This document shows positions 1 through 42,981 of a stretch of DNA of 42,981 nucleotides, one piece after another. The position numbers and the translations under genes are program-made. The stretch covers positions 1 to 42,981 of the IMG/VR virus record IMGVR_UViG_3300009537_000043. The stretch is one strand, 5' to 3'. The notes under the pieces are model-generated. The model was not told where the DNA came from. It did not search any database and worked only from the letters and a program-made list of their open reading frames with translations. Each line of letters begins with the position of its first letter. Position 1 is the stretch's first letter. This DNA is from a virus.

Positions 1-99
1 ATGAATTGCAAACCTTTACTGAAGGCGTTTGAACTAAACAAACTGAAAGAACCGAAATGAACTACGAATACGAATGCACCAACTGTGGAGAGGAGATAA
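1..99. repeat. Terminal overlap, copy 1 (identical to 42883-42981). Positions 1-60 are the 3' end of the CDS 42553..42942
   Basis: Read directly: the first 99 nt (atgaattgcaaaccttt...ggagaggagataa) recur exactly as the last 99 nt of the window. Confidence 0.95.
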
Positions 100-323
100 G
101 CTTCGAGTTTACTCCTGGTCGTTCTGCTCCTGTTTGTTCTAACCATGATTCACCTGCATTCAGTGACCCAGGAGACGGTCCTGAATGTGATGGACCTGAA
201 AATTGCTCTGCATGTGGAGCAGGAATAGACATCGAGAAGGTTATCGAACAAGCGGAACAATACTGTGCAGACAACCAACCAGATGAACCTGATTATGAAG
301 AACGTGACGAAGAGGAAGTGTGA
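57..323 (+). CDS. Small Cys-rich (zinc-ribbon-like) protein with an acidic C-terminus, function unknown
   Basis: The 88-aa ORF has CTNCG...CSNH...CSACG pairs and a C-terminal DEPDYEERDEEEV tail. ATGA overlap with the preceding gene across the circular junction. Confidence 0.5.
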   Translation: MNYEYECTNCGEEISFEFTPGRSAPVCSNHDSPAFSDPGDGPECDGPENCSACGAGIDIEKVIEQAEQYCADNQPDEPDYEERDEEEV

Positions 324-459
324 CCAGTGTTCAGAAGAATTTATTCCCACTTCTGAAGAACAGAAGCAATGTGAAGAATGTGAAGGAGTTTCACCTTGCT
401 GTGGAGTAGAATTTGACGAAGACATTCGCATCTGTCCATCATGCAAAGAACACATTTAA
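265..459 (+). CDS. Small Cys-rich zinc-finger-like protein. The true start is probably internal (ATG 295 or GTG 304)
   Basis: CDQC...CEEC...CCG...CPSC motifs. The 5' end overlaps ORF 57..323, so the start is uncertain. Confidence 0.4.
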   Translation: MQTTNQMNLIMKNVTKRKCDQCSEEFIPTSEEQKQCEECEGVSPCCGVEFDEDIRICPSCKEHI

Positions 460-854: not shown

Positions 855-1802
855 ATGAAAGAACTAAGAAATCAGTTTGTAATGCGTCCAGACTTTCGCC
901 CCATGTTGGCGGCAGGAATCAAGGACATGACAAAACTCACACTACCGAAACTTGCTACACCAAAGCTAGACGGTATTCGATGTGTGACCAGAGAGAAACA
1001 GATACTCGATTTATTCGGCAAGTCAACAGTAGAGGCTGTTTCCAGGTCACTGACTTCCATCCCCAACAGATACGTGCAACAGGTTCTTGGTGAGTATGAC
1101 CTGACAGGTCTTGATGGTGAACTCATTACATACACAGATGGTGTAATGGATGAATACTATCAGGTTGAATCCAAGATTATGTCACGTGACGGGACACCGG
1201 ATTTTAAGTTCCATGTCTTCGACCTTGTTGAACCATTACCCTATTGGGACAGGATGGAGTGGTTGAAGGATAAGCTCGTCTTTCCAGAAACTTCGCGGCT
1301 ACTCAAGGTTCTCCCTGTTCTAATCCAATCCATTGAGCAGTTAAATGCTTATGAAGAAGCTTGTCTCCAACTTGGGTTCGAGGGTGTCATGCTTCGAGAT
1401 ATTGATGGTCCATATAAGTTTGGACGGTCAACATTCAACCAGCAATGGTTACTCAAATTGAAACGGTTTGAAGATGCAGAGGCAACCATCATTGGTTTCG
1501 AGGAACTCATGGTCAATGGGAACGAGGCTGTTACCAATGCTCTTGGTTTGTCGGAACGTTCATCCCATAAAGCCAATTTGATTCCTGGTGGTAAGCTTGG
1601 TGCGCTAATCGTTGTAGGACACAACGGTGTGCAGTTCAATATTGGGACAGGTTTCAATGATGAACAGAGACGGGATATTTGGATGAAACGTGACTCCTAC
1701 AAGTGTAAGCTTGTGAAGTTTAAATACCAACCACATGGACAGAAGGATGCACCGCGGTGTCCGGTATTTCTCGGCTTCCGGGAAGATATGGAGGTAATAT
1801 GA
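855..1802 (+). CDS. ATP-dependent DNA ligase
   Basis: Nucleotidyltransferase motifs: I PKLDGIR (KxDGxR), III FHVFDL, IV EGVMLR, V WLLKLKRF. The 315-aa size is typical of phage ligases. Confidence 0.9.
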   Translation: MKELRNQFVMRPDFRPMLAAGIKDMTKLTLPKLATPKLDGIRCVTREKQILDLFGKSTVEAVSRSLTSIPNRYVQQVLGEYDLTGLDGELITYTDGVMDEYYQVESKIMSRDGTPDFKFHVFDLVEPLPYWDRMEWLKDKLVFPETSRLLKVLPVLIQSIEQLNAYEEACLQLGFEGVMLRDIDGPYKFGRSTFNQQWLLKLKRFEDAEATIIGFEELMVNGNEAVTNALGLSERSSHKANLIPGGKLGALIVVGHNGVQFNIGTGFNDEQRRDIWMKRDSYKCKLVKFKYQPHGQKDAPRCPVFLGFREDMEVI

Positions 1803-2038
1803 ATACACTGCGATTCACTTCAAAGAATCCTATGAGGTGGAGAGAGTGCTGTCCAGATTGTGGATTCTTGTTAACAGAATTGGAATCTGCTATGTTGGAA
1901 AAGGTGAAGACGTTTGATTGTCCACGTTGCAAATCACATTATGCTATTGAAGATTTCAATTATGAGATGAACGAAAAGCATATGGCTCAACATCATAATC
2001 ATGCGAAAGCTGACCTATCACAAGAGGAGCAAGAATGA
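1799..2038 (+). CDS. Small zinc-ribbon protein
   Basis: CPDCGF...CPRCKSHY. ATG 1799 overlaps the ligase stop (ATGA) and follows a GGAGG at 1790-1794. The ORF track also offers an upstream start at 1757. Confidence 0.5.
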   Translation: MNTLRFTSKNPMRWRECCPDCGFLLTELESAMLEKVKTFDCPRCKSHYAIEDFNYEMNEKHMAQHHNHAKADLSQEEQE

Positions 2039-2412
2039 ATGTTAATTACGAAGAACTAATACGTAAGTTCCATGACAAGTTCCAACAGACCTACAAAGGT
2101 CCACCGAGAGTCTTGCCAGAAGAACTACAATGGAGACTCGACTTTATTTATGAGGAATTTACAGAGCTTGAAGAAGCTGTTGACCATGAAGATATTGTTA
2201 AGACCTACGATGCTCTTCTAGACCTGATGGTCGTCTGCATGGGGACAATTGACCTAATGGGACTCTCTATCAATAAGGGATTGTTCGAGGTTATGCGTTC
2301 CAATATGACCAAGGAACTCGGACCTATTGGAACAGGGAAATATGGTCGTGGTCTCCAAAAGGGAAAAGATTATCAACCACCAAACTTGGAGGTATTATGT
2401 CAGGTAGATTAA
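2035..2412 (+). CDS. MazG-like all-alpha nucleoside triphosphate pyrophosphohydrolase
   Basis: 125 aa with acidic helix motifs (EEFTELEEAVDHED ... DALLDL) typical of the MazG/HisE fold. AGGAG lies upstream, with ATGA coupling to the previous gene. Confidence 0.65.
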   Translation: MNVNYEELIRKFHDKFQQTYKGPPRVLPEELQWRLDFIYEEFTELEEAVDHEDIVKTYDALLDLMVVCMGTIDLMGLSINKGLFEVMRSNMTKELGPIGTGKYGRGLQKGKDYQPPNLEVLCQVD

Positions 2413-2963
2413 TCATTGTCGAAGGTCCAGATGAATGCGGAAAGTCAACTCTTGTTAAGGTGTTGACAAAAACTCTTCATCTAGTTCCATTTCATTGCAC
2501 AGCTAGTCGAGCCTTATTCCCTGCTCTACCTGACTACCATAAGAACATCATGTTTAATGTGAAGGAAATGTTGAAAGAAGGACATGATGTAATTCTAGAC
2601 AGGTATTGGCCTAGTGAAGTATGTTATGGGCCTATCATGGGACGAGGAAATCATTACTGGACTACCGCATTGGAGCTTATTAAGGAAATTAAGAAGCTAA
2701 ATCACGTGTATATCTTTTGTAATTCTGAATATGCGTGGTCTAGATATGAACAAGGACACACAGACCCTGCACACTCATTAACAAAAGAACAATACGAACA
2801 AATCGCAAATAACTACTTACAACTAAAATATGAACTCAAAGAATACATCGAATACAACGTCGAAACCCATGGAACAAGAGACAATATTACCGAATTTATT
2901 TCATCCATCGAGAACTTTTTTAAACTTAGACATCAATCAAATATGGTTGAAAGTGTTGGCTGA
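2397..2963 (+). CDS. Thymidylate-kinase-like dNMP kinase
   Basis: P-loop IIVEGPDECGKSTL resembles the Tmk signature (EGxDGxGKST). 188 aa. GGAGG lies 5 nt upstream of the ATG. Confidence 0.7.
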   Translation: MSGRLIIVEGPDECGKSTLVKVLTKTLHLVPFHCTASRALFPALPDYHKNIMFNVKEMLKEGHDVILDRYWPSEVCYGPIMGRGNHYWTTALELIKEIKKLNHVYIFCNSEYAWSRYEQGHTDPAHSLTKEQYEQIANNYLQLKYELKEYIEYNVETHGTRDNITEFISSIENFFKLRHQSNMVESVG

Positions 2964-3723
2964 TATCATTAACTATGGAAACAGTGTCAATCCACGTGGT
3001 CAGGAGACTTTCGAGATTCTGAACTACACTACACGTGTTCCCATGAATCGTGCAGCATTGTCCGTAGTGAACAGAGAGCTTGGATACAAGTTTCTGTTTG
3101 CAGAGGCTTGGTGGATTCTCATGGGTGACAACCGTGTTTCAACTATCGAGCCTTACTCAGGACAAATTGCCTCATTCTCTGACAATGGAATCACCTTTGA
3201 TGGAGCATATGGACCTGAAGTAATTAGTCAATTAGACCACATAGTGGACACACTCCACAAGTCTCCTGACTCTCGACAGGGTGTAATGACTATATGGAAA
3301 AAGAATCCTCGTAAGAGTAAGGATATTCCTTGCACTATCTCTGACCAGTTTCTGATTCGTGACAACAAGCTTCATGTTATCCACAATATGAGAAGCTCAG
3401 ACATCTGGCTTGGTTGGCCCTATGATGTATTTAACTTTTCCATGATTTCACTCTATATTGTGAAGGCATTGAATAAGTGGATGCCAACCCTGGACCTTGG
3501 TGACTTGTATCTTAATGCCGGCAGTCAACATCTGTATCGTAAAAACATTGCAGGAGCGCAACGATGCTTGACTGCTCCTCATTCCTGGGATTATAAACCA
3601 CTTAACGTGAATGAGTTCAGAGATAGTAATGATGTCTTGGCTTACTTGGATTCCATGAAAGACAAGAATATCAAAGCAACAACAGTGAGCTATTTGAAAG
3701 ACTTAGTCAAATCAGCAGGATAA
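2830..3723 (+). CDS. Thymidylate-synthase-superfamily enzyme, probably a dCMP 5-hydroxymethylase or 5-methylase rather than canonical ThyA. The start is uncertain (2830, 2869 or later)
   Basis: ThyA-family motifs AEAWWILMGDN, SPDSRQG, catalytic DIPCT, NMRSSD and GSQHLY. The core FLIRDNKLHVIHNMRSSDIWLGWPYD resembles recalled T4 gp42. The 5' 134 nt overlap the kinase gene. Confidence 0.8.
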   Translation: MNSKNTSNTTSKPMEQETILPNLFHPSRTFLNLDINQIWLKVLADIINYGNSVNPRGQETFEILNYTTRVPMNRAALSVVNRELGYKFLFAEAWWILMGDNRVSTIEPYSGQIASFSDNGITFDGAYGPEVISQLDHIVDTLHKSPDSRQGVMTIWKKNPRKSKDIPCTISDQFLIRDNKLHVIHNMRSSDIWLGWPYDVFNFSMISLYIVKALNKWMPTLDLGDLYLNAGSQHLYRKNIAGAQRCLTAPHSWDYKPLNVNEFRDSNDVLAYLDSMKDKNIKATTVSYLKDLVKSAG

Positions 3724-3724
3724 T

Positions 3725-4135
3725 ATGAACGATAGAATTATAGAATTAATGTATGTAGCCAAAAGTATTGCATCAGGGTCTCTTGACCCGTATAAGCAAG
3801 TAGGATGTCTTATTCTTGATGCTGATGGTGTGGTAATTTCAACAGGTATTAATCACTTAGATAGAACTGCCCCAGTTTCCTTATATAAGGAACGTGAAAA
3901 AAGACGTCCATACATGATTCATGCGGAACTAGCTGCTCTAGGTGACATTAACCGTCACCATGGACGGGGTCATACAGTAATAGTAACTCTACTTCCATGT
4001 GTTCATTGCATGACTGCTCTTGCAGCATTCAAGATTAAGGAAGTATATTATCGAGAAGCCTATGAGAAGGATTTAATGGCATTAGATGTCGCGATTCACC
4101 ATAACATTATCTGTCAACAGGTGACAATTCTATGA
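3725..4135 (+). CDS. dCMP (deoxycytidylate) deaminase
   Basis: Zinc-deaminase motifs HAELAAL (HAE) and LPCVHCMTAL (PCxxC). 136 aa. Confidence 0.85.
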   Translation: MNDRIIELMYVAKSIASGSLDPYKQVGCLILDADGVVISTGINHLDRTAPVSLYKEREKRRPYMIHAELAALGDINRHHGRGHTVIVTLLPCVHCMTALAAFKIKEVYYREAYEKDLMALDVAIHHNIICQQVTIL

Positions 4136-6000
4136 CTGGTATCAATCTAACATTATTTGAACCTGTCTCAGATTGGAAACCTGAGTTGAAGTTTCCAAGT
4201 CTTGAGGGTGTCAGGTCTATGGCCATAGACTTGGAAACAAAAGACCCTAATATTGAAGATAAAGGTCCAGGCAGTATCCGTAAGGATGGATACCCTGTCG
4301 GTGTTTCAATAGCCACTAATACAGGTTTCAAGGCTTACTATCCTTTTGCTCATGAGTTGGGTGGAAACCTGCCAAAAGAGAACGTGCTTAACTTCCTACG
4401 TGAGATAGCAGGAAGAACAGATATAGAGAAGGTAGGCGCGAATTTCGTATATGACCTTGAATGGCTAAGGTTCATGGGCATCACTCTCAAAGGTCAGCTT
4501 CGAGATGTGCAGATTGCTGAGTCTCTGATTGACGAGGAGTCTTTACAGGGTTATAGTCTATCTGCTCTAGGTCTGAAGTATCTTGGACATAAGAAAAATG
4601 AAGAGTTGCTGAACTTGGCTGCCTCTGCTTATGGTGTCCATCCTAAGAACGACATGTGGAGATTGCATTCTAAATATGTAGGTCCATATGCACAGGCTGA
4701 TGCTGCTATGACCTTGGCAATCTATGACAAGCAGCAAGATGTTCTTACATCTGAGGGTATATGGTCTGTCTTTAACATGGAATGTGAATTGATTCCTATT
4801 GTCCTAGAGATGAGGCTGAAAGGTGTGAGGGTTGACCTTGATGCTGCAGAAATTCTCCGTAAGGAATTGAAGAAGGAAGAAGAGAGTGTTCTGCATGCTA
4901 TCTTTGCTGAGACTGGATTCAATGTAAATGTCAGGTCATCAGACCATATTGAACGAGTGTGCAGGAAATTTGGTTATGAATACTCCAGAACAGAAAAGGG
5001 AAACCCTAGCTTCGATAAGAACTTTCTCAAAAATAGCGACAATTCATTTTTCAGGAAAGTTCTTCAAGCTAGAAACCTTAACACGCTTCGCTGCAACTTC
5101 ATCGAAGAAACAATTTTCGGAAATCATGTTAATGGGCGCATACATGCAGAGTTCCATCAAACGAGAAGCGACCAGGATGGAACAAGGACTGGACGATTCG
5201 CTGTCAGTAACCCCAATCTCCAGCAAATACCGTCAAGACATGAAATGGCTCACAAAATCAGAGCCTTGTTCGTGCCTAATCATGGAGAGAAATGGGCCAA
5301 GCTTGACTACTCTCAACAAGAACCTCGTATCTTGACTCACTATGGTGTCTTGATGAAGCTGCTTGGTGCAGATAAAATCAGAGACGCATATCTAGCTGAC
5401 AAGAAAACTGACTTTTATCCTCTGGTTGCGAAAGCAGCAGGTCTTCCCAGGAAACCAGCTAAAGACCTGACACTAGGTATCTGCTACGGTGAGGGTAAGG
5501 ATAAGATTTCACGTGACCTAGGTTTCACGATGGAGAAGTCTATGGAAGTTCTCAAGATTTTCAATGAGGCTAATCCCTTCATTAAACAACTCTCTGACAT
5601 CTGTATGGAATTAGCAGAGAAGAGAGGTTATATCAAGACCCTGCTTGGTCGTAAGAGAAGATTCAACCTATGGGAACTTAAAAGGAAAGATTACCATAGC
5701 TACCCTCTTCCATTGAATAAGGCTAGGGAGAAGTATCCCTCTGCTCCATTAAAACGGGCATACACCTACAAGGCTCTTAATGCCTTGATTCAAGGTTCAG
5801 CTGCAGACATGACTAAGGCAGCAATGATTCAAAATTTCAAACAGCATGGAGAAATTCCCCTGTTAACCGTTCATGATGAACTAGACCACTCTGTCACCTG
5901 CGAGGAACAAGCATTAAAGATACAACATGTAATGGAGAACTGTGTGCAGGTCACAGTTCCGATTTACGCTGAACTAGAACTAGGAGACCACTGGAAATGA
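4132..6000 (+). CDS. Family A DNA polymerase with 3'-5' exonuclease domain
   Basis: Exo I MAIDLETKD. Pol motif A LDYSQQEPRIL, motif B RKPAKDLTLGICYG, motif C LTVHDEL. Confidence 0.95.
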   Translation: MTGINLTLFEPVSDWKPELKFPSLEGVRSMAIDLETKDPNIEDKGPGSIRKDGYPVGVSIATNTGFKAYYPFAHELGGNLPKENVLNFLREIAGRTDIEKVGANFVYDLEWLRFMGITLKGQLRDVQIAESLIDEESLQGYSLSALGLKYLGHKKNEELLNLAASAYGVHPKNDMWRLHSKYVGPYAQADAAMTLAIYDKQQDVLTSEGIWSVFNMECELIPIVLEMRLKGVRVDLDAAEILRKELKKEEESVLHAIFAETGFNVNVRSSDHIERVCRKFGYEYSRTEKGNPSFDKNFLKNSDNSFFRKVLQARNLNTLRCNFIEETIFGNHVNGRIHAEFHQTRSDQDGTRTGRFAVSNPNLQQIPSRHEMAHKIRALFVPNHGEKWAKLDYSQQEPRILTHYGVLMKLLGADKIRDAYLADKKTDFYPLVAKAAGLPRKPAKDLTLGICYGEGKDKISRDLGFTMEKSMEVLKIFNEANPFIKQLSDICMELAEKRGYIKTLLGRKRRFNLWELKRKDYHSYPLPLNKAREKYPSAPLKRAYTYKALNALIQGSAADMTKAAMIQNFKQHGEIPLLTVHDELDHSVTCEEQALKIQHVMENCVQVTVPIYAELELGDHWK

Positions 6001-6377
6001 CACCTGAGAAAAGATTTTGGGTTTATCTTAGAGAGCATGGTTTCGATGGCCATGTAACTCGAATTGAGAATACTGCCGGCATTGGAACACCAGACGTGAA
6101 CCTTGTCCGAAAGGGTTGTGAGATGTGGCTTGAGTTGAAAGTAGCTCCTCCAGGTAAAGTCTTGATTCGTAAGGAACAAAGGGTATGGGGTTATCATCAT
6201 GCCAAAAACGGTGGTAACGTGTATGTGTTATCACTATGGGAGAAAGTTATCAATGTGTATATGTATCCACTTGAAACAGAGAAGCACGATGACAAGTATC
6301 AGAAAATAACATCAGAACCAATTGCAGTATTCCATCAACATGAAGTAGAGAAATTATTGAACTTTATAACTATATGA
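5997..6377 (+). CDS. PD-(D/E)xK nuclease (VRR-NUC-like)
   Basis: GIGTPDVNLV...MWLELKV fits PD...(D/E)xK. 126 aa. ATGA coupling to the polymerase gene. Confidence 0.55.
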   Translation: MTPEKRFWVYLREHGFDGHVTRIENTAGIGTPDVNLVRKGCEMWLELKVAPPGKVLIRKEQRVWGYHHAKNGGNVYVLSLWEKVINVYMYPLETEKHDDKYQKITSEPIAVFHQHEVEKLLNFITI

Positions 6378-6679
6378 AACAAACAGTATTCGTGGTCCAA
6401 GAGACCGAACACAACATTGAACTTGCTAGGGAATATGGAGATTTCCATGTTATCCTAACCTATAAAGACATTGAAAAGGGAACTGAGCACATGCTCGCAA
6501 AGATACAGAGACACCTTGAAGGAGTAGTTAATTGGAAGGACTACATCCTCTGTGTTGGAGACCCTGTTGCAATAGGTCTGACTCTCGTAGTAGCACTTGG
6601 ATACACTAATGGAGTGATTAATGTGCTACGGTGGGACAAGAGAAGTTACAAATACAAAACAGATGAAATCAAACTATGA
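6374..6679 (+). CDS. Hypothetical protein
   Basis: 101-aa ORF, translationally coupled on both sides (ATGA overlaps). No motif recognised. Confidence 0.5.
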   Translation: MKQTVFVVQETEHNIELAREYGDFHVILTYKDIEKGTEHMLAKIQRHLEGVVNWKDYILCVGDPVAIGLTLVVALGYTNGVINVLRWDKRSYKYKTDEIKL

Positions 6680-7197
6680 ACGCAGAACTAAAAGACATCA
6701 AAGAACTCGTTCGCTTTACTCAACAATTGCAGGCTGAGATAGAGCAAGATGAGACCAAGCTCCAGGCAAAGAAAGACAGGCTGGAGTTGTTCATGACAGA
6801 CCTTATACCTGACTTTATTCTAGGTATGGGTTTGTCGGAAGTTAAACTGGATACAGGTGAAACTATATCCGTGGGAACGAAATATTTCGGTAATATTTCA
6901 AAGGACAGAGCGGAAGCTGCTTTCAAGTGGCTTCGAGAACACGAGCATGGTTCGTTAATCAAGACATCTGTTTCTGCTACCTTCGGTGCAGGACTAGACG
7001 AACAGGTTGACTACACATTGCTGAAGCAATTTATCGAAGAGAATGAAATAGGTGCTGAGATGCAGGACAAGGTCCATCCTCAGACACTGAAATCATTCAT
7101 CAAGAACTCCATGGAAAATGGAGTAAAATTTCCCTATGAACTCTTTGGCGTTTATGTGGCCAAGGAATTAGTAGTGGAGAAACCAAAAACAAAGTAA
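6676..7197 (+). CDS. Hypothetical protein with an N-terminal coiled coil
   Basis: 173-aa ORF in the replication block. No motif recognised. Confidence 0.5.
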   Translation: MNAELKDIKELVRFTQQLQAEIEQDETKLQAKKDRLELFMTDLIPDFILGMGLSEVKLDTGETISVGTKYFGNISKDRAEAAFKWLREHEHGSLIKTSVSATFGAGLDEQVDYTLLKQFIEENEIGAEMQDKVHPQTLKSFIKNSMENGVKFPYELFGVYVAKELVVEKPKTK

Positions 7198-7209
7198 TAC
7201 CATAATACA

Positions 7210-8058
7210 ATGAAACAAACAAAGACAAAACAGATGGATACAGCACCCGTTGTGGACGAAACAGAATACAATTGGGGTGAAGAACAGGGAGCAACAGGGT
7301 TTGAGGCAACCCGTCAAGAGGACTTGGGGATTCCGTTCCTGAGCCTGCTCCAGAAAGGTTCACCTGAAGTGGACGAAACACACAAGAACCATGAACTCAA
7401 GAAAATTGAGGGTGCGAAAGGTGGTATGTTGATTAACACCGTCACCCGTGAGATTCTCTACACCCGTGAAGGCGAGCCTCTCAAGTTCGTCCCAGTGTTC
7501 CATGAGAAGCTGTTCCAGGAATGGAAGCCTCGTAACCTGGGAGGAGGGTTTGTTGCTTCTCATAAGAGTCCCATCATTCTGAGCAAGTGCATTCGCAACT
7601 CGGATAACCAGGATATGTTGCCTAACGGTAACGAAATCAAAACCACGTCATACTTCTATGGGTTCGCCTTGATTGAAGGACAAGAGCCTGTTCGTATGAT
7701 TATTGCCTTGACCTCTACTCAGTTGAAGAAAGGTCGTGGTTGGTTGAATATGATGCAGACCATCAAGGTGAACGGTAAGACTCCACCAATGTATAGCCAC
7801 GTGTATAATATCACGTCTGACATTGAGAAGAACAATGACGGTAGTTGGTTTGGTTGGCACTTCGAGATTGACCGCATGTTGAATAAGAACGACATGGCTC
7901 TAATCGAGGTTGCCCGTAACGTTGCTACTGAATGTGCGGCTACCAAACTCGCTGCTCCTGAACCTGTTGAGCAACTTGCTGAACACAATGATGGAGAGCC
8001 TACTGAAGCTGATGAACGTGCAGATGCAGAAGCACGTATGGCAGCACGTCGTCGTTAA
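7210..8058 (+). CDS. Hypothetical replication-module protein (possibly ssDNA-binding or annealing, unproven)
   Basis: 282-aa ORF between replication genes, with a charged C-terminal tail, followed by a strong hairpin terminator. The functional guess rests on position only. Confidence 0.55.
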   Translation: MKQTKTKQMDTAPVVDETEYNWGEEQGATGFEATRQEDLGIPFLSLLQKGSPEVDETHKNHELKKIEGAKGGMLINTVTREILYTREGEPLKFVPVFHEKLFQEWKPRNLGGGFVASHKSPIILSKCIRNSDNQDMLPNGNEIKTTSYFYGFALIEGQEPVRMIIALTSTQLKKGRGWLNMMQTIKVNGKTPPMYSHVYNITSDIEKNNDGSWFGWHFEIDRMLNKNDMALIEVARNVATECAATKLAAPEPVEQLAEHNDGEPTEADERADAEARMAARRR

Positions 8059-24056: not shown

Positions 24057-24571
24057 TATGCTATCTTTGGTTGAGCAGAAGCTTTTTGTTTGGCTTGACT
24101 GTAATCATTCGCGTATCCAGCGCTTTCAGTAACTCCAGATAGAATTGTAGAAGATATTCCATAATATGAATTACTTCTAGCTTGATTTCCTTCAAACCTG
24201 GCTAACGAAGCTTGAGCCATTGAACTATCTGCTCCAGTCTTCCCTTGATACAAAGAAGTCAATACATCGTTCTCAGCAGCTAAAGCCGAGTCATACATAA
24301 CATCATTTGCTGAACCTGAAAGAGTAATACCTGATTTAGAGGCACTTGAAATCTGTGCTCCTTTAAGTCTTTTTGCTCTATCACGTATCCTGGAAGCTTG
24401 AGCCTCAGCTTGATACCGTTGTGAGATGGCTGCATTCTCAGCAATTTTAGCATTGTAATTGGCTACTTTCTCCTGTGCCTTTCCTTGCTGATACATACCA
24501 ACAGCAGAGACAGCTGTTCCTACAACTGCTACTACTGCTGCTACTATTGCTGCTGCTGTTGCTACTGCCAT
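24056..24571 (-). CDS. Small internal virion protein with an N-terminal TM helix
   Basis: MAVATAAAIVAAVVAVVGTAVSAVG hydrophobic N-terminus, then an Ala/Gln/Ser-rich region. It is the first of the internal-protein block. Confidence 0.5.
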   Translation of the reverse strand: MAVATAAAIVAAVVAVVGTAVSAVGMYQQGKAQEKVANYNAKIAENAAISQRYQAEAQASRIRDRAKRLKGAQISSASKSGITLSGSANDVMYDSALAAENDVLTSLYQGKTGADSSMAQASLARFEGNQARSNSYYGISSTILSGVTESAGYANDYSQAKQKASAQPKIA

Positions 24572-25086
24572 AATTCTTTAGAGTAAAAGATTTCTATTGG
24601 TTTAAAACCACGACGTTCATACAACTTTTTGAGAGTTTCGGAATTGTGTTCAACCAAATGAGCCATCATAATTCTATTAGCACCTATCTCAACAGCCCAT
24701 TTTTCAAATGTTAAGAGAAGTTCTAAACCTCCCCTACCAGTTCTATGTTCAGGATGAACATACCAAAAAGTCTCAGTAGCAGTTAAAGAACCATCAAGAA
24801 TATCTGGGGACAAAATACCACCAAGCATTCCAACTATCTGGTCATTCTTAACATACTTCCACATTACCCCCATGTTGTTTTCTAACAATACTGTCCAGTT
24901 CTTCAAAAACACATCTAAATTGAACTTGACAGGTAAACCGCACTCATTAAGAAATGAAAGAGCTAACGAGGTTACTCGCAATTCTTTCAATCCCTCTAGT
25001 GTTATCGGTTTTATCACGTTTTGTGTGTGGTCTAAAATTAGTTGAGCGGCGTTTTGATTGGCCCATTGGCCCAAACCATAGGGCAA
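24562..25086 (-). CDS. GNAT-family N-acetyltransferase. The track start is a TTG and the true start is uncertain
   Basis: The core HPEHRTGRGGLELLLTFEKWA...LYERRGF fits GNAT motif A (R-x-x-G-x-G) and beta-4/alpha-3. It lies inside the structural operon. Confidence 0.75.
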   Translation of the reverse strand: MPYGLGQWANQNAAQLILDHTQNVIKPITLEGLKELRVTSLALSFLNECGLPVKFNLDVFLKNWTVLLENNMGVMWKYVKNDQIVGMLGGILSPDILDGSLTATETFWYVHPEHRTGRGGLELLLTFEKWAVEIGANRIMMAHLVEHNSETLKKLYERRGFKPIEIFYSKELWQ

Positions 25087-41005: not shown

Positions 41006-41311
41006 ATGAGCGTCGAATATCTAAAGATTCACGGCCAACCATGTGACTGTCCTTTTTGCGGGGCGGAGCGGAAGCTGGCGGCGGAAGCTGCACCGGCGGG
41101 CTCTGATGCGGCGTGTGCGTCCTGCAAATACTTCGTGCCTAGCAAAGAGAACGAATTTAATGGAATCTGTCGCCGTAACCCACCCAGCGTCAAAGACCGC
41201 TTCGGCGTGGACTATTGGCCGACCGTCGGACGCGGAGCGTGGTGTGGTGAATACAAGCCTCAGAACGGCCCGGATCAGGGACGCCGGGCCAGCGACTCTA
41301 AAACTTTATGA
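41006..41311 (+). CDS. Cys-rich hypothetical protein (GC-rich island)
   Basis: CDCPFCG...CASCKYF...GICRR...WCGEY. It is preceded by the duplicated AACGAGAAAGG(C/T)CAGCG leader. An alternative-frame ORF (41043..41330) is judged less likely. Confidence 0.5.
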   Translation: MSVEYLKIHGQPCDCPFCGAERKLAAEAAPAGSDAACASCKYFVPSKENEFNGICRRNPPSVKDRFGVDYWPTVGRGAWCGEYKPQNGPDQGRRASDSKTL

Positions 41312-42552: not shown

Positions 42553-42942
42553 ATGACAACACCAGCAGCAGCAAACTTCTATCTCGCACAACATCTACTC
42601 GAACAAGAGGGCAAACCTTATGCCGTCTTTAATCCTCATAATAAACATGTTGAAACATTACCTGTTATCTTCGGATTTAATAACGGTGGGTCTAATGGTT
42701 GGTATAGGGCGTGCTTACTTGCAGAAGATGGCACACATCTAGGTGGCCACATCTGTTCGCACGAAGGTTACATGCGACACGACCTTGGTATCCTTGAAGG
42801 AACTCGTCCAGACAGGCACGAAGATTTTAAGAAACACTATCCGAATGGGTATCGTATGGCGTTTGTCTCGTTACACGAAGTGATGAATTGCAAACCTTTA
42901 CTGAAGGCGTTTGAACTAAACAAACTGAAAGAACCGAAATGA
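42553..42942 (+). CDS. Hypothetical protein. Its 3' end lies in the terminal overlap
   Basis: 129-aa ORF. The last 60 nt are duplicated at 1-60. Confidence 0.5.
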   Translation: MTTPAAANFYLAQHLLEQEGKPYAVFNPHNKHVETLPVIFGFNNGGSNGWYRACLLAEDGTHLGGHICSHEGYMRHDLGILEGTRPDRHEDFKKHYPNGYRMAFVSLHEVMNCKPLLKAFELNKLKEPK

Positions 42943-42981
42943 ACTACGAATACGAATGCACCAACTGTGGAGAGGAGATAA
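42883..42981. repeat. Terminal overlap, copy 2. It indicates circular closure or a short direct terminal repeat
   Basis: Exact 99-nt identity with 1-99. ORF 57..323 restarts at 42939. Confidence 0.95.

Follow-up and report, generated by a model that had tools for sequence, protein, structure and literature searches.

The IMG/VR virus record IMGVR_UViG_3300009537_000043, analyzed here over its whole length of 42,981 nucleotides (the window), is the complete genome of an uncultured podovirus. It carries a four-gene cassette (2035-4135, plus strand) that probably constitutes a pre-replicative pathway putting 5-hydroxymethylcytosine (5hmC) in the place of cytosine. The cassette encodes a MazG-like pyrophosphohydrolase, a Tmk-like kinase, a ThyA-superfamily enzyme and a zinc-dependent deaminase of the deoxycytidine monophosphate (dCMP) deaminase family, and a family A DNA polymerase gene (PolA) lies directly downstream. 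A preliminary description of this DNA had named the four coupled genes and their families and had likened the set to the cytosine hydroxymethylation pathway of phage T4. Open reading frames (ORFs), Pfam and PHROGs confirm the genes and families, and the interpretation as a whole is supported, with refinements.

The ThyA-like protein very probably acts on cytosine nucleotides

Substrate choice in the thymidylate synthase (TS) superfamily turns on residue 177 (E. coli ThyA numbering, as throughout), a switch between uracil (Asn) and cytosine (Asp) (PMC8670742, PMC13326640, PMC5175136), and Asp177 alone turns E. coli TS into a dCMP methylase (PMC8670742). The window protein has Asp opposite ThyA Asn177 in all four alignments that we made: pairwise HMMER alignments with the ThyA structure 6auj and with MilA, the CMP 5-hydroxymethylase of mildiomycin synthesis; a 10-sequence MAFFT alignment with T4 gp42, RB69 gp48, Xp12 TS, SPO1 gp29, E. 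coli ThyA and the aligned part of MilA; a 130-sequence MAFFT alignment; and an L-INS-i alignment. This reproduces the assignment made in the preliminary description. The motifs on which that description drew, DIPC, DSRQ, QHLY and FLIRDNKLHVIHNMRSSDIWLGWPYD, are all present in the translation, and the T4 gp42 and E. coli ThyA strings that it gave match the real sequences. We consider it very probable that the enzyme acts on cytosine nucleotides.

The signature extends beyond this one position. In the window protein it reads E58, Y94, R126, Q127, D143, C146, T147, R166, S167, D169, D177, H207 and Y209, and across the 120 best homologs every one of these residues is invariant except T147, which is Ser in 6. 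The general catalytic residues of TS (Cys146, Glu58, Tyr94, Arg166, His207 and Tyr209) are thus all kept in the window protein and in 120/120 homologs. At the diagnostic positions (Table 1) the window protein equals T4 gp42 throughout, except at 127, where it has Gln, as in SPO1 gp29, rather than Arg; the T4 counterpart of residue 177 is Asp179.

Table 1. Diagnostic active-site residues in the window family and in characterized enzymes (E. coli ThyA numbering).
Enzyme	143 (Cys-3)	147	169	177	Other
Window protein and family	Asp	Thr	Asp	Asp	Gln127
T4 gp42	Asp	Thr	Asp	Asp	Arg127
Xp12 methylase	Asn	Pro	Asp	Asp	
RB69 5-hydroxy-dCMP synthase	Glu	Thr	Asn	Asp	
SPO1 gp29	Asp	Asn	Asp	Asn	Gln127
MilA	Asp	Thr	Asp	Asp	Ala167, Lys126

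Position 143, three residues ahead of the catalytic cysteine (Cys-3), bears on the product. It is Leu in ThyA and Asp or Glu in hydroxymethylases (PMC6400193, PMC13326640); in T4 gp42 this residue, D145, activates the substrate water, and the D145N enzyme makes no 5hm-dCMP (PMC6400193). The window family has Asp here. In addition, the Trp80 position is deleted in 120/120 homologs, likewise in MilA and gp29. Both E. coli ThyA and the Xp12 methylase carry the C-terminal tail motif Y-[DN]-P-x-P, which occurs in 0/120 family members. In ThyA the methylene intermediate is shielded by Trp80 and this tail, which also assist hydride transfer. Asp at Cys-3 and the loss of both Trp80 and the tail therefore favor hydroxymethylation over methylation, although the features taken to mark a methylase (Cys-3 residue, Trp80 loop, tail and a dihydrofolate reductase, DHFR) are drawn from one characterized methylase, that of Xp12. 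The 5-methyl-dC outcome, which had been considered equally possible, is narrowed accordingly, and the product is probably 5hmdCMP, with 5hmC in virion DNA.

Two other kinds of cytosine enzyme were considered and rejected. The newly described flavin-dependent 5-hydroxy-dCMP synthases are recognized by D169N (PMC13326640); the window protein and 120/120 homologs keep Asp169, which rules out an enzyme of this RB69 gp48 type. A CMP (ribose) hydroxymethylase of the MilA/BcmA type was rejected on the sugar-contacting residues: Ser167 and Arg126 go with deoxyribose, and Ala and Lys, as in MilA, with ribose (PMC5175136). The window protein and 120/120 homologs have Ser167 and Arg126, which argues for a deoxyribose-type enzyme.

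Nearest characterized relatives by sequence and fold

By sequence comparison, the nearest characterized relatives of the ThyA-like protein are hydroxymethylases, MilA first and SPO1 gp29 second. Against the reference enzymes, phmmer gave 78.9 bits for MilA, 56.9 for SPO1 gp29, 43.2 for E. coli ThyA, 37.6 for T4 gp42, 28.4 for Xp12 and 25.8 for RB69 gp48; a hidden Markov model (HMM) of the family kept the ranking MilA, SPO1 gp29, E. coli ThyA, and the order shifted only among the three weakest references. The best sequence match in the PDB is also MilA (3e-21, 35% over the aligned part), followed by ThyA (3e-16) and T4 dCMP hydroxymethylase (dCH; 1.5e-8). The nearest characterized relative is MilA and not gp42, which stands below E. 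coli ThyA over the whole protein. The core is indeed closer to gp42 than to E. coli ThyA, but modestly so (12/26 against 10/26 identical residues) rather than "much closer."

The fold points the same way. In a Foldseek search of the PDB with an AlphaFold2 (AF2) model built on 61 sequences (predicted local distance difference test, pLDDT, 92.9), seven MilA chains came top (~6e-22, template modeling (TM) score 0.77), followed by ThyA structures (~6e-17); there were 396 matches at E<=0.001, and the best 50 of the 396 are all MilA or thymidylate synthases.

We also built a neighbor-joining (NJ) tree on 237 columns with six characterized reference enzymes, reading bootstraps as unrooted splits. Support was 100 for the family, 93 for the family with MilA and gp29, and 60 for the family with MilA, and a split with a bootstrap of 90 set E. 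coli ThyA and Xp12 apart from all hydroxymethyl- or hydroxy-forming enzymes. T4 gp42 and RB69 gp48 formed a separate branch, and the family did not group with gp42.

As the preliminary description had anticipated, the protein falls outside canonical ThyA: its grouping is with pyrimidine hydroxymethylases (the splits at 93 and 90), and it misses all NCBIfam ThyA equivalog cut-offs, the best score being 60 bits against a cut-off of 174. Identity as a canonical ThyA was rejected on these scores together with Asp rather than Asn at 177, Asp rather than Leu at 143, the deletion of Trp80 and the missing tail motif.

The start of the ThyA-like gene has three options: ATG 2830, ATG 2869 and GTG 2953, the last being the choice of the gene caller (256 aa). 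With GTG 2953 the protein would lose a Trp that hardly varies in the family and part of helix 1, as judged from the family alignment and the AF2 model. ATG 2830, the first ATG, only lengthens an unconserved N-terminus, and the model shows disorder ahead of the fold. ATG 2869, the nearest canonical start that keeps the Trp and helix 1, is most likely the true start and implies a 95-nt overlap with the kinase gene.

The cassette recurs in uncultured phages and resembles loci linked to cytosine-modified DNA

At E<=1e-10 the TS clade counts 838 database proteins, and the family alignment, used to scan IMG/VR, gave 416 related loci, 80 of which were taken for neighborhood analysis. We clustered the ORFs of these 80 loci together with five earlier loci and the window, and counted genes in the 67 related loci with at least 3 kb of flank on both sides. 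The conserved order is S-adenosylmethionine (SAM) methyltransferase, PRA-PH pyrophosphohydrolase, kinase, TS, deaminase, PolA. The kinase is present in 59/67, PolA directly downstream of the cassette in 57, PRA-PH in 53, the methyltransferase in 49 and the deaminase in 44. This order recurs in dozens of unrelated contigs, and the arrangement is therefore more than chance. The clade spreads over aquatic, soil and SAR11-infecting phages, and we predict that it is a compact, MilA-like group of enzymes that modify cytosine at C5, set within a cassette tied to cytosine-modified viromes.

The methyltransferase of most relatives, which include Stenotrophomonas phage AXL3 and PW916, is a class-I enzyme (Methyltransf_23, ~280 aa) directly upstream of PRA-PH (for example L010:3488-4333, L003:2990-3886 and L002:2641-3465). 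It could further methylate the hydroxymethyl base, or another base. It is absent from the window and from its two closest relatives (73-75% TS identity).

The tie to cytosine modification comes from published metagenomics. In MetaGPA, no domain was more strongly associated with cytosine-modified virome contigs than Thymidylat_synt, which co-occurred with PRA-PH, dCMP_cyt_deam_1 and MafB19-deam, with DNA ligases as one of three cores; the top discriminating residue was position 177 (PMC8670742). In a second study, the figures for deaminase genes within 3 kb of a TS gene were 70% on modified contigs and 6% on unmodified ones, and the top co-localized domains were TS, MafB19-deam, PRA-PH and DNA_pol_A with its exonuclease (10.1101/2024.12.05.627091). 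The window has a neighborhood of this kind, with an N177D TS no more than 3 kb from a PF00383 deaminase, plus PRA-PH and DNA_pol_A. One IMG/VR locus (L091) was recovered when the 5hmC carbamoyltransferase was used as a marker of 5hmdCMP synthases; there a homolog of that carbamoyltransferase adjoins the PRA-PH-TS-deaminase set. The TS of this locus belongs to a different, T4-like clade, so the locus backs the logic of the cassette, not the product of the clade found in the window.

The closest cultured carriers are AXL3 (and PW916) and the Pelagibacter phages HTVC119P/HTVC200P, with TS identities of 46% and 54%, respectively. AXL3 DNA resisted 35/37 restriction enzymes; it was cut only by AATT and TTAA enzymes, and not by GGCC, CCGG or GCGC enzymes (PMC7504290). 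Among SAR11 podoviruses of the votkovvirus type, six loci carry the kinase-TS pair only, without PRA-PH or deaminase (L001, which is HTVC119P 4490-5774, and L078, L080, L084, L086 and L087), and the 157-aa "hypothetical" gp15 of HTVC119P is a homolog of the cassette kinase (tblastn 2.6e-10). These pelagiphages are reported to be temperate, integrating into host genomes (10.1101/410191). In the literature, we found no paper characterizing this TS clade or the pelagiphage homologs, and the source annotations, where they name the protein, always call it "thymidylate synthase" (one has "hypothetical protein").

Those annotations, like the AXL3 and PW916 papers, assume ordinary thymidylate supply, in which dCMP deaminase would make dUMP, the ThyA homolog dTMP and Tmk dTDP, with no modification of the DNA. 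The labels of Pfam, PHROGs and the sources ("thymidylate synthase," "thymidylate kinase," "dCMP deaminase") agree with such a role. However, ThyA Asn177, Leu143, His147 and Trp80 are all replaced, the scores lie far under every ThyA equivalog cut-off, AXL3 and PW916 have a separate ThyX, and AXL3 DNA is restriction-resistant. We regard thymidylate supply as extremely unlikely.

Modified thymine would be another outcome. Here dUMP would be hydroxymethylated in the manner of SPO1 gp29, or 5hmdC nucleotides would be deaminated to 5hmdU, and 5-hydroxymethyluracil (5hmU) would replace thymine, instead of or besides a change to cytosine. SPO1 gp29 is the second-closest characterized relative and has Gln127 and Asp143 in common with the window protein, a dCMP deaminase is a natural supplier of dUMP, and the deaminase mSCD-B5 converts 5hmdCTP to 5hmdUTP in vitro (10.1101/2024.12.05.627091). 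The PW916 homolog is even annotated as a deoxyuridylate hydroxymethyltransferase, although that annotation is automatic. Yet residue 177 is Asp in 120/120 family members and Asn in gp29 and ThyA, the neighborhood is enriched in libraries selected for modified cytosine, and the AXL3 digests spared GGCC, CCGG and GCGC sites and cut at AATT and TTAA. A 5hmU route is, in our view, highly improbable.

Partner proteins and the absence of downstream modification genes

The other three cassette proteins are compatible with a nucleotide-level pathway. The EExxE...DxxxD...NMxK motifs of the pyrophosphohydrolase are conserved in 58 cassette homologs, and we propose that the protein is a dCTPase/dUTPase that returns dCTP to dCMP and so keeps dC out of phage DNA. 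It is assigned to the all-alpha NTP pyrophosphatases, PRA-PH in this case, as is T4 gp56, with a DCTPP1-like fold assigned to the dCTPases of RB69 and DLP3. A single-sequence AF2 model of the protein had a pLDDT of 53 and was not used for fold search.

For the kinase, the Pfam Thymidylate_kin match (22.9 bits) and TIGR00041 (2e-9) both fall below cut-off. The P-loop GPDECGKST and a DRxWxSExxY motif are conserved across its family, and hhalign relates that family, at a probability of 96%, to RB69p045, the Tmk-like kinase of the RB69 5-hydroxy-C cluster. We propose that it is a kinase for 5-modified dCMP (and dTMP). In most relatives the kinase has ~330 aa, with an extra C-terminal domain of ~140 aa (for example L076:8980-9972) that is missing from the window kinase. 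A fold like that of uracil-DNA glycosylase was suspected for this domain from motifs such as FVGD...HPSY; with no Pfam, PHROG or PDB sequence match, the domain is left unassigned.

The deaminase matches human dCMP deaminase (1e-7), the PBCV-1 dCMP/dCTP deaminase (1e-5) and T4 cd (5e-5) in the PDB. Its HAE and PCxxC motifs are conserved across the family, which hhalign relates to the Xp12 deaminase at a probability of 99%. It may convert dCMP to dUMP as T4 cd does, or act on 5-modified dCTP, and it is the least certain part of the pathway.

Whether other enzymes might act on the product depends on the completeness of the genome. An exact 99-bp direct repeat at the window ends (1-99 = 42883-42981), which is either a terminal redundancy or a circular assembly overlap, indicates that the window is a complete genome, with 42,882 unique bases, so that a lack of other modification genes carries weight. 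We scanned ORFs left unassigned by the non-overlapping ORF set with Pfam and/or PHROGs, and ran tblastn with the relatives' methyltransferase, NT5C, Xp12 DHFR and Xp12 HAD as queries. By these scans and tblastn the complete genome has no glycosyltransferase, carbamoyltransferase or SAM methyltransferase, and no DHFR, ThyX or NT5C; it also has no further ThyA, that is, no thymidylate synthase of the phage's own. The preliminary description had likewise recognized no glycosyltransferase. With no glycosyl-, carbamoyl- or methyltransferase encoded, the predicted end product is plain 5hmC.

Proposed pathway and the points that weigh against it

The family-level identities, the active-site signature and its conservation, the conservation of the cassette and the lack of a recognizable downstream transferase are established here; the substrates of every enzyme, the product and how far cytosine is replaced in the DNA are inferred. 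In the pathway that we propose, the MazG-like pyrophosphohydrolase would convert dCTP, and probably dUTP too, to the monophosphate. Using methylene-tetrahydrofolate, the ThyA homolog would then transfer a one-carbon unit onto C5 of dCMP, and the exocyclic methylene intermediate would be resolved by water, not hydride, to yield 5-hydroxymethyl-dCMP and tetrahydrofolate. The Tmk-like kinase would phosphorylate the modified monophosphate, a substrate that host kinases would refuse; host nucleoside diphosphate (NDP) kinase would complete the modified triphosphate; and the adjacent DNA polymerase A would incorporate it, giving virion DNA with 5hmC for C. The deaminase would send a share of the cytosine nucleotides down the uracil/thymine branch. 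Because hydroxymethylation yields tetrahydrofolate, no DHFR would be needed, and none is encoded, unlike in Xp12. The T4 deaminase feeds dUMP to thymidylate synthase; here, as the phage has neither ThyA nor ThyX, host ThyA would have to finish dTMP synthesis.

A number of findings weigh against this pathway. With six reference enzymes and NJ only, the tree is supportive only. The ThyA-like protein and its whole family have Gly-Ala-Tyr where the proposed dCH signature includes Ser or Thr two residues before the Tyr (T4 Ser94-x-Tyr96; PMC6400193), although SPO1 gp29, a proven hydroxymethylase, also lacks this element (Ala-Pro-Tyr). The best PDB sequence match of the pyrophosphohydrolase is the MazG-like dUTPase DR2231 (1e-4), and its 58-member profile shows no detectable relation to T4 gp56 (hhalign probability 0.3%), so the parallel between the two is functional only. 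The gene set fits both the pre-replicative modification scheme put forward in the preliminary description and the MetaGPA neighborhood, with the gp56 counterpart an analog in function only. The window has neither the methyltransferase nor the longer kinase of AXL3, whose restriction phenotype may therefore not transfer.

The remaining points come from the enzymes linked to such deaminases. In an NEB screen, 5/7 of the deaminase-linked TS homologs tested made 5mdCMP, and more than 60% of the active linked deaminases preferred 5mdCTP/5hmdCTP, many ignoring dCMP (10.1101/2024.12.05.627091). These results would fit a pathway of the Xp12 type, in which a dCMP methylase makes 5mdCMP, the kinase and host NDP kinase raise it to 5mdCTP, and a 5mdCTP-selective deaminase turns part of this into dTTP, one cassette supplying both 5-methylcytosine (5mC) and T without a thymidylate synthase. 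Such a scheme would neatly explain a genome without ThyA or ThyX, and it accords with the effect of Asp177 in E. coli TS, with the kinship of the deaminase to that of Xp12 and with the missing Ser94 element. On the other side stand Asp rather than Asn at Cys-3, Thr rather than Pro at 147, the loss of Trp80 and of the ThyA-type C-terminal tail, both of which Xp12 keeps, and the lack of a DHFR; moreover, with 28 bits Xp12 ranks among the remotest references and lies on the ThyA side of the split with a bootstrap of 90. We consider a methylating cassette unlikely.

If a hydroxymethylase is paired with a deaminase selective for modified nucleotides, 5hmdUTP would also be made. Phage DNA with both pyrimidines hydroxymethylated (5hmC and 5hmU) seems improbable, as does DNA whose hydroxymethyl group is derivatized by an unrecognized enzyme, such as the GNAT acetyltransferase of the window (Table 2) or the relatives' SAM methyltransferase. 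To our knowledge, combined 5hmC and 5hmU DNA from a single one-carbon transfer has not been reported. Replacement of cytosine by 5hmC remains the reading that we favor.

Genome context

The genome encodes a T7-like portal and capsid, a nozzle protein, a terminase, the family A DNA polymerase, an archaeo-eukaryotic (AEP) primase, UvrD-like and SNF2-like helicases and Pam3 gp32-34-like proteins; no tRNA genes were found in the window. A blastn search with 2035-6000 against 50,697 phage records gave no match, and by this measure the phage has no close cultured relative at the DNA level. The genes of the cassette overlap or abut, as their junctions show (2397/2412, 2869-2953/2963, 3723/3725 and 4132/4135), and the polymerase start overlaps the deaminase stop (ATGA, 4132), which would couple its translation to the cassette. 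The ligase upstream of the cassette stands in the same position in MW202510 and in L009, the closest relative (TS 73% identical); we treat it as context for the cassette, with no demonstrated role in the pathway.

Table 2. Coordinates of the cassette, its active-site motifs and other features of the window.
Feature	Position	Strand	Evidence
ATP-dependent DNA ligase	855-1802	+	PF01068 and PF14743
MazG/PRA-PH-type all-alpha NTP pyrophosphohydrolase, 125 aa	2035-2412	+	Pfam PF01503 6e-10; phrog_671 "nucleotide pyrophosphohydrolase" 3e-21
Tmk-like P-loop nucleoside-monophosphate kinase, 188 aa	2397-2963	+	phrog_761 "thymidylate kinase" 3e-16; GPDECGKST
ThyA-superfamily enzyme, 284 aa	2869-3723	+	PF00303 7e-21, 75 bits vs cut-off 24.3
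DIPC: Asp at Cys-3 (E. coli Leu143, T4 Asp145) and catalytic Cys (E. coli Cys146)	3322-3333	+	
RSSDIWLGWPYD: Arg166, Ser167, Asp169, final Asp at Asn177 position	3391-3426	+	translation and alignments
Zinc-dependent dCMP-family deaminase, 136 aa	3725-4135	+	PF00383 3e-15; MafB19-deam 3.5e-5; phrog_174 1.5e-26; HAE and PCVHC
Family A DNA polymerase with 3'-5' exonuclease	4132-6000	+	PF00476 9e-58; PF01612 6e-9
Pam3 gp32, gp33 and gp34-like genes, consecutive	6374-8058		Pfam families, 5e-19, 1e-28 and 1.5e-50
Small Cys-rich zinc-ribbon ORF	57-459		
Small Cys-rich zinc-ribbon ORF, 93 aa, between ligase and PRA-PH	1757-2038		
Small Cys-rich zinc-ribbon ORF	41006-41311		
Internal-virion-like protein, 1000 aa	18814-21816	-	weak GNAT and ABC1-kinase-like matches
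GNAT acetyltransferase	24562-25086	-	PF00583 3.7e-10; phrog_1249 2e-19

Between ligase and PRA-PH, where the window has only one of its small zinc-ribbon ORFs, L009 carries an NT5C-type 5'(3')-deoxyribonucleotidase (4503-5090), which could help to exclude a canonical nucleotide. One of the zinc-ribbon ORFs has a very weak match, below cut-off, to Lar (restriction alleviation; E 0.007). Downstream, the Pam3 gp32-34-like block follows the polymerase and a small VRR-NUC-like gene, and it accompanies the cassette in 38 to 47 of the 86 loci compared. The GNAT acetyltransferase lies among tail and internal-virion genes, and the 1000-aa protein is its neighbor. Both may be ejected effectors, and nothing found here ties them to DNA modification.

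Implications

If the signature is read correctly, C-modified DNA is present in hundreds of uncultured phage genomes. Some library preparations recover modified DNA poorly, and such DNA affects the interpretation of virome data as well as both restriction-based and CRISPR-based host defense. The annotation of the clade is also at issue, given that the papers on its cultured carriers read it as thymidylate supply. In practical terms, the clade would be a compact source of candidate dCMP-modifying enzymes, dNMP kinases and possibly modification-selective deaminases, a type already exploited for methylome sequencing. The 5hmC system itself is probably a further example of a known anti-restriction strategy rather than a new principle.

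Comparison with known systems

The neighborhoods described by MetaGPA resemble the window in their domain set: PRA-PH, an N177D TS, dCMP_cyt_deam_1/MafB19-deam, DNA_pol_A with its exonuclease, and a ligase nearby. The linked TS homologs characterized in the MetaGPA/NEB work are, in contrast, Xp12-like methylases, and the window lacks the carbamoyltransferase of 5cmdC contigs. Among cultured phages, AXL3 has the same cassette of NTP pyrophosphatase, kinase, TS and deaminase, and differs in being a siphovirus of 63% G+C with a SAM methyltransferase, a 327-aa kinase and ThyX; the pelagiphages HTVC119P/HTVC200P differ in having the kinase-TS pair only.

Xp12 shares with the window an Asp177 ThyA homolog beside a related deaminase, as well as the purpose, complete replacement of C. 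It differs in the Asn at Cys-3, Pro147, the Trp of the W80 loop and the ThyA C-terminal tail, none of which is found in the window protein, and in the DHFR and HAD hydrolase genes beside its TS gene, neither of which is in the window. MilA (PDB 5jnh and 5b6d) is closest by sequence and fold and has in common Asp143, Thr147, Asp177, the one-residue deletion that removes Trp80 and a long C-terminal region unlike that of ThyA. As a bacterial enzyme of secondary metabolism it stands outside any replication cassette, and its Ala176 and Lys133 (MilA residue numbers) favor ribose, where the window protein has Ser and Arg.

T4 offers the closest parallel in logic. Its hmC pathway (gp56, gp42, gp1 and cd) covers the same four functional roles and the predicted chemistry, and gp42 agrees with the window protein at 143 (Asp), 146 (Cys), 147 (Thr), 167 (Ser), 169 (Asp) and 177 (Asp). 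Identity to gp42 is only 22%, and Ser94 and Arg127 of gp42 are Gly and Gln in the window protein. The window kinase is Tmk-like, not gp1-like, and its pyrophosphatase shows no detectable relation to gp56 by hhalign. Unlike T4, the window has a compact cassette beside a family A polymerase, without a glucosyltransferase or a phage thymidylate synthase.

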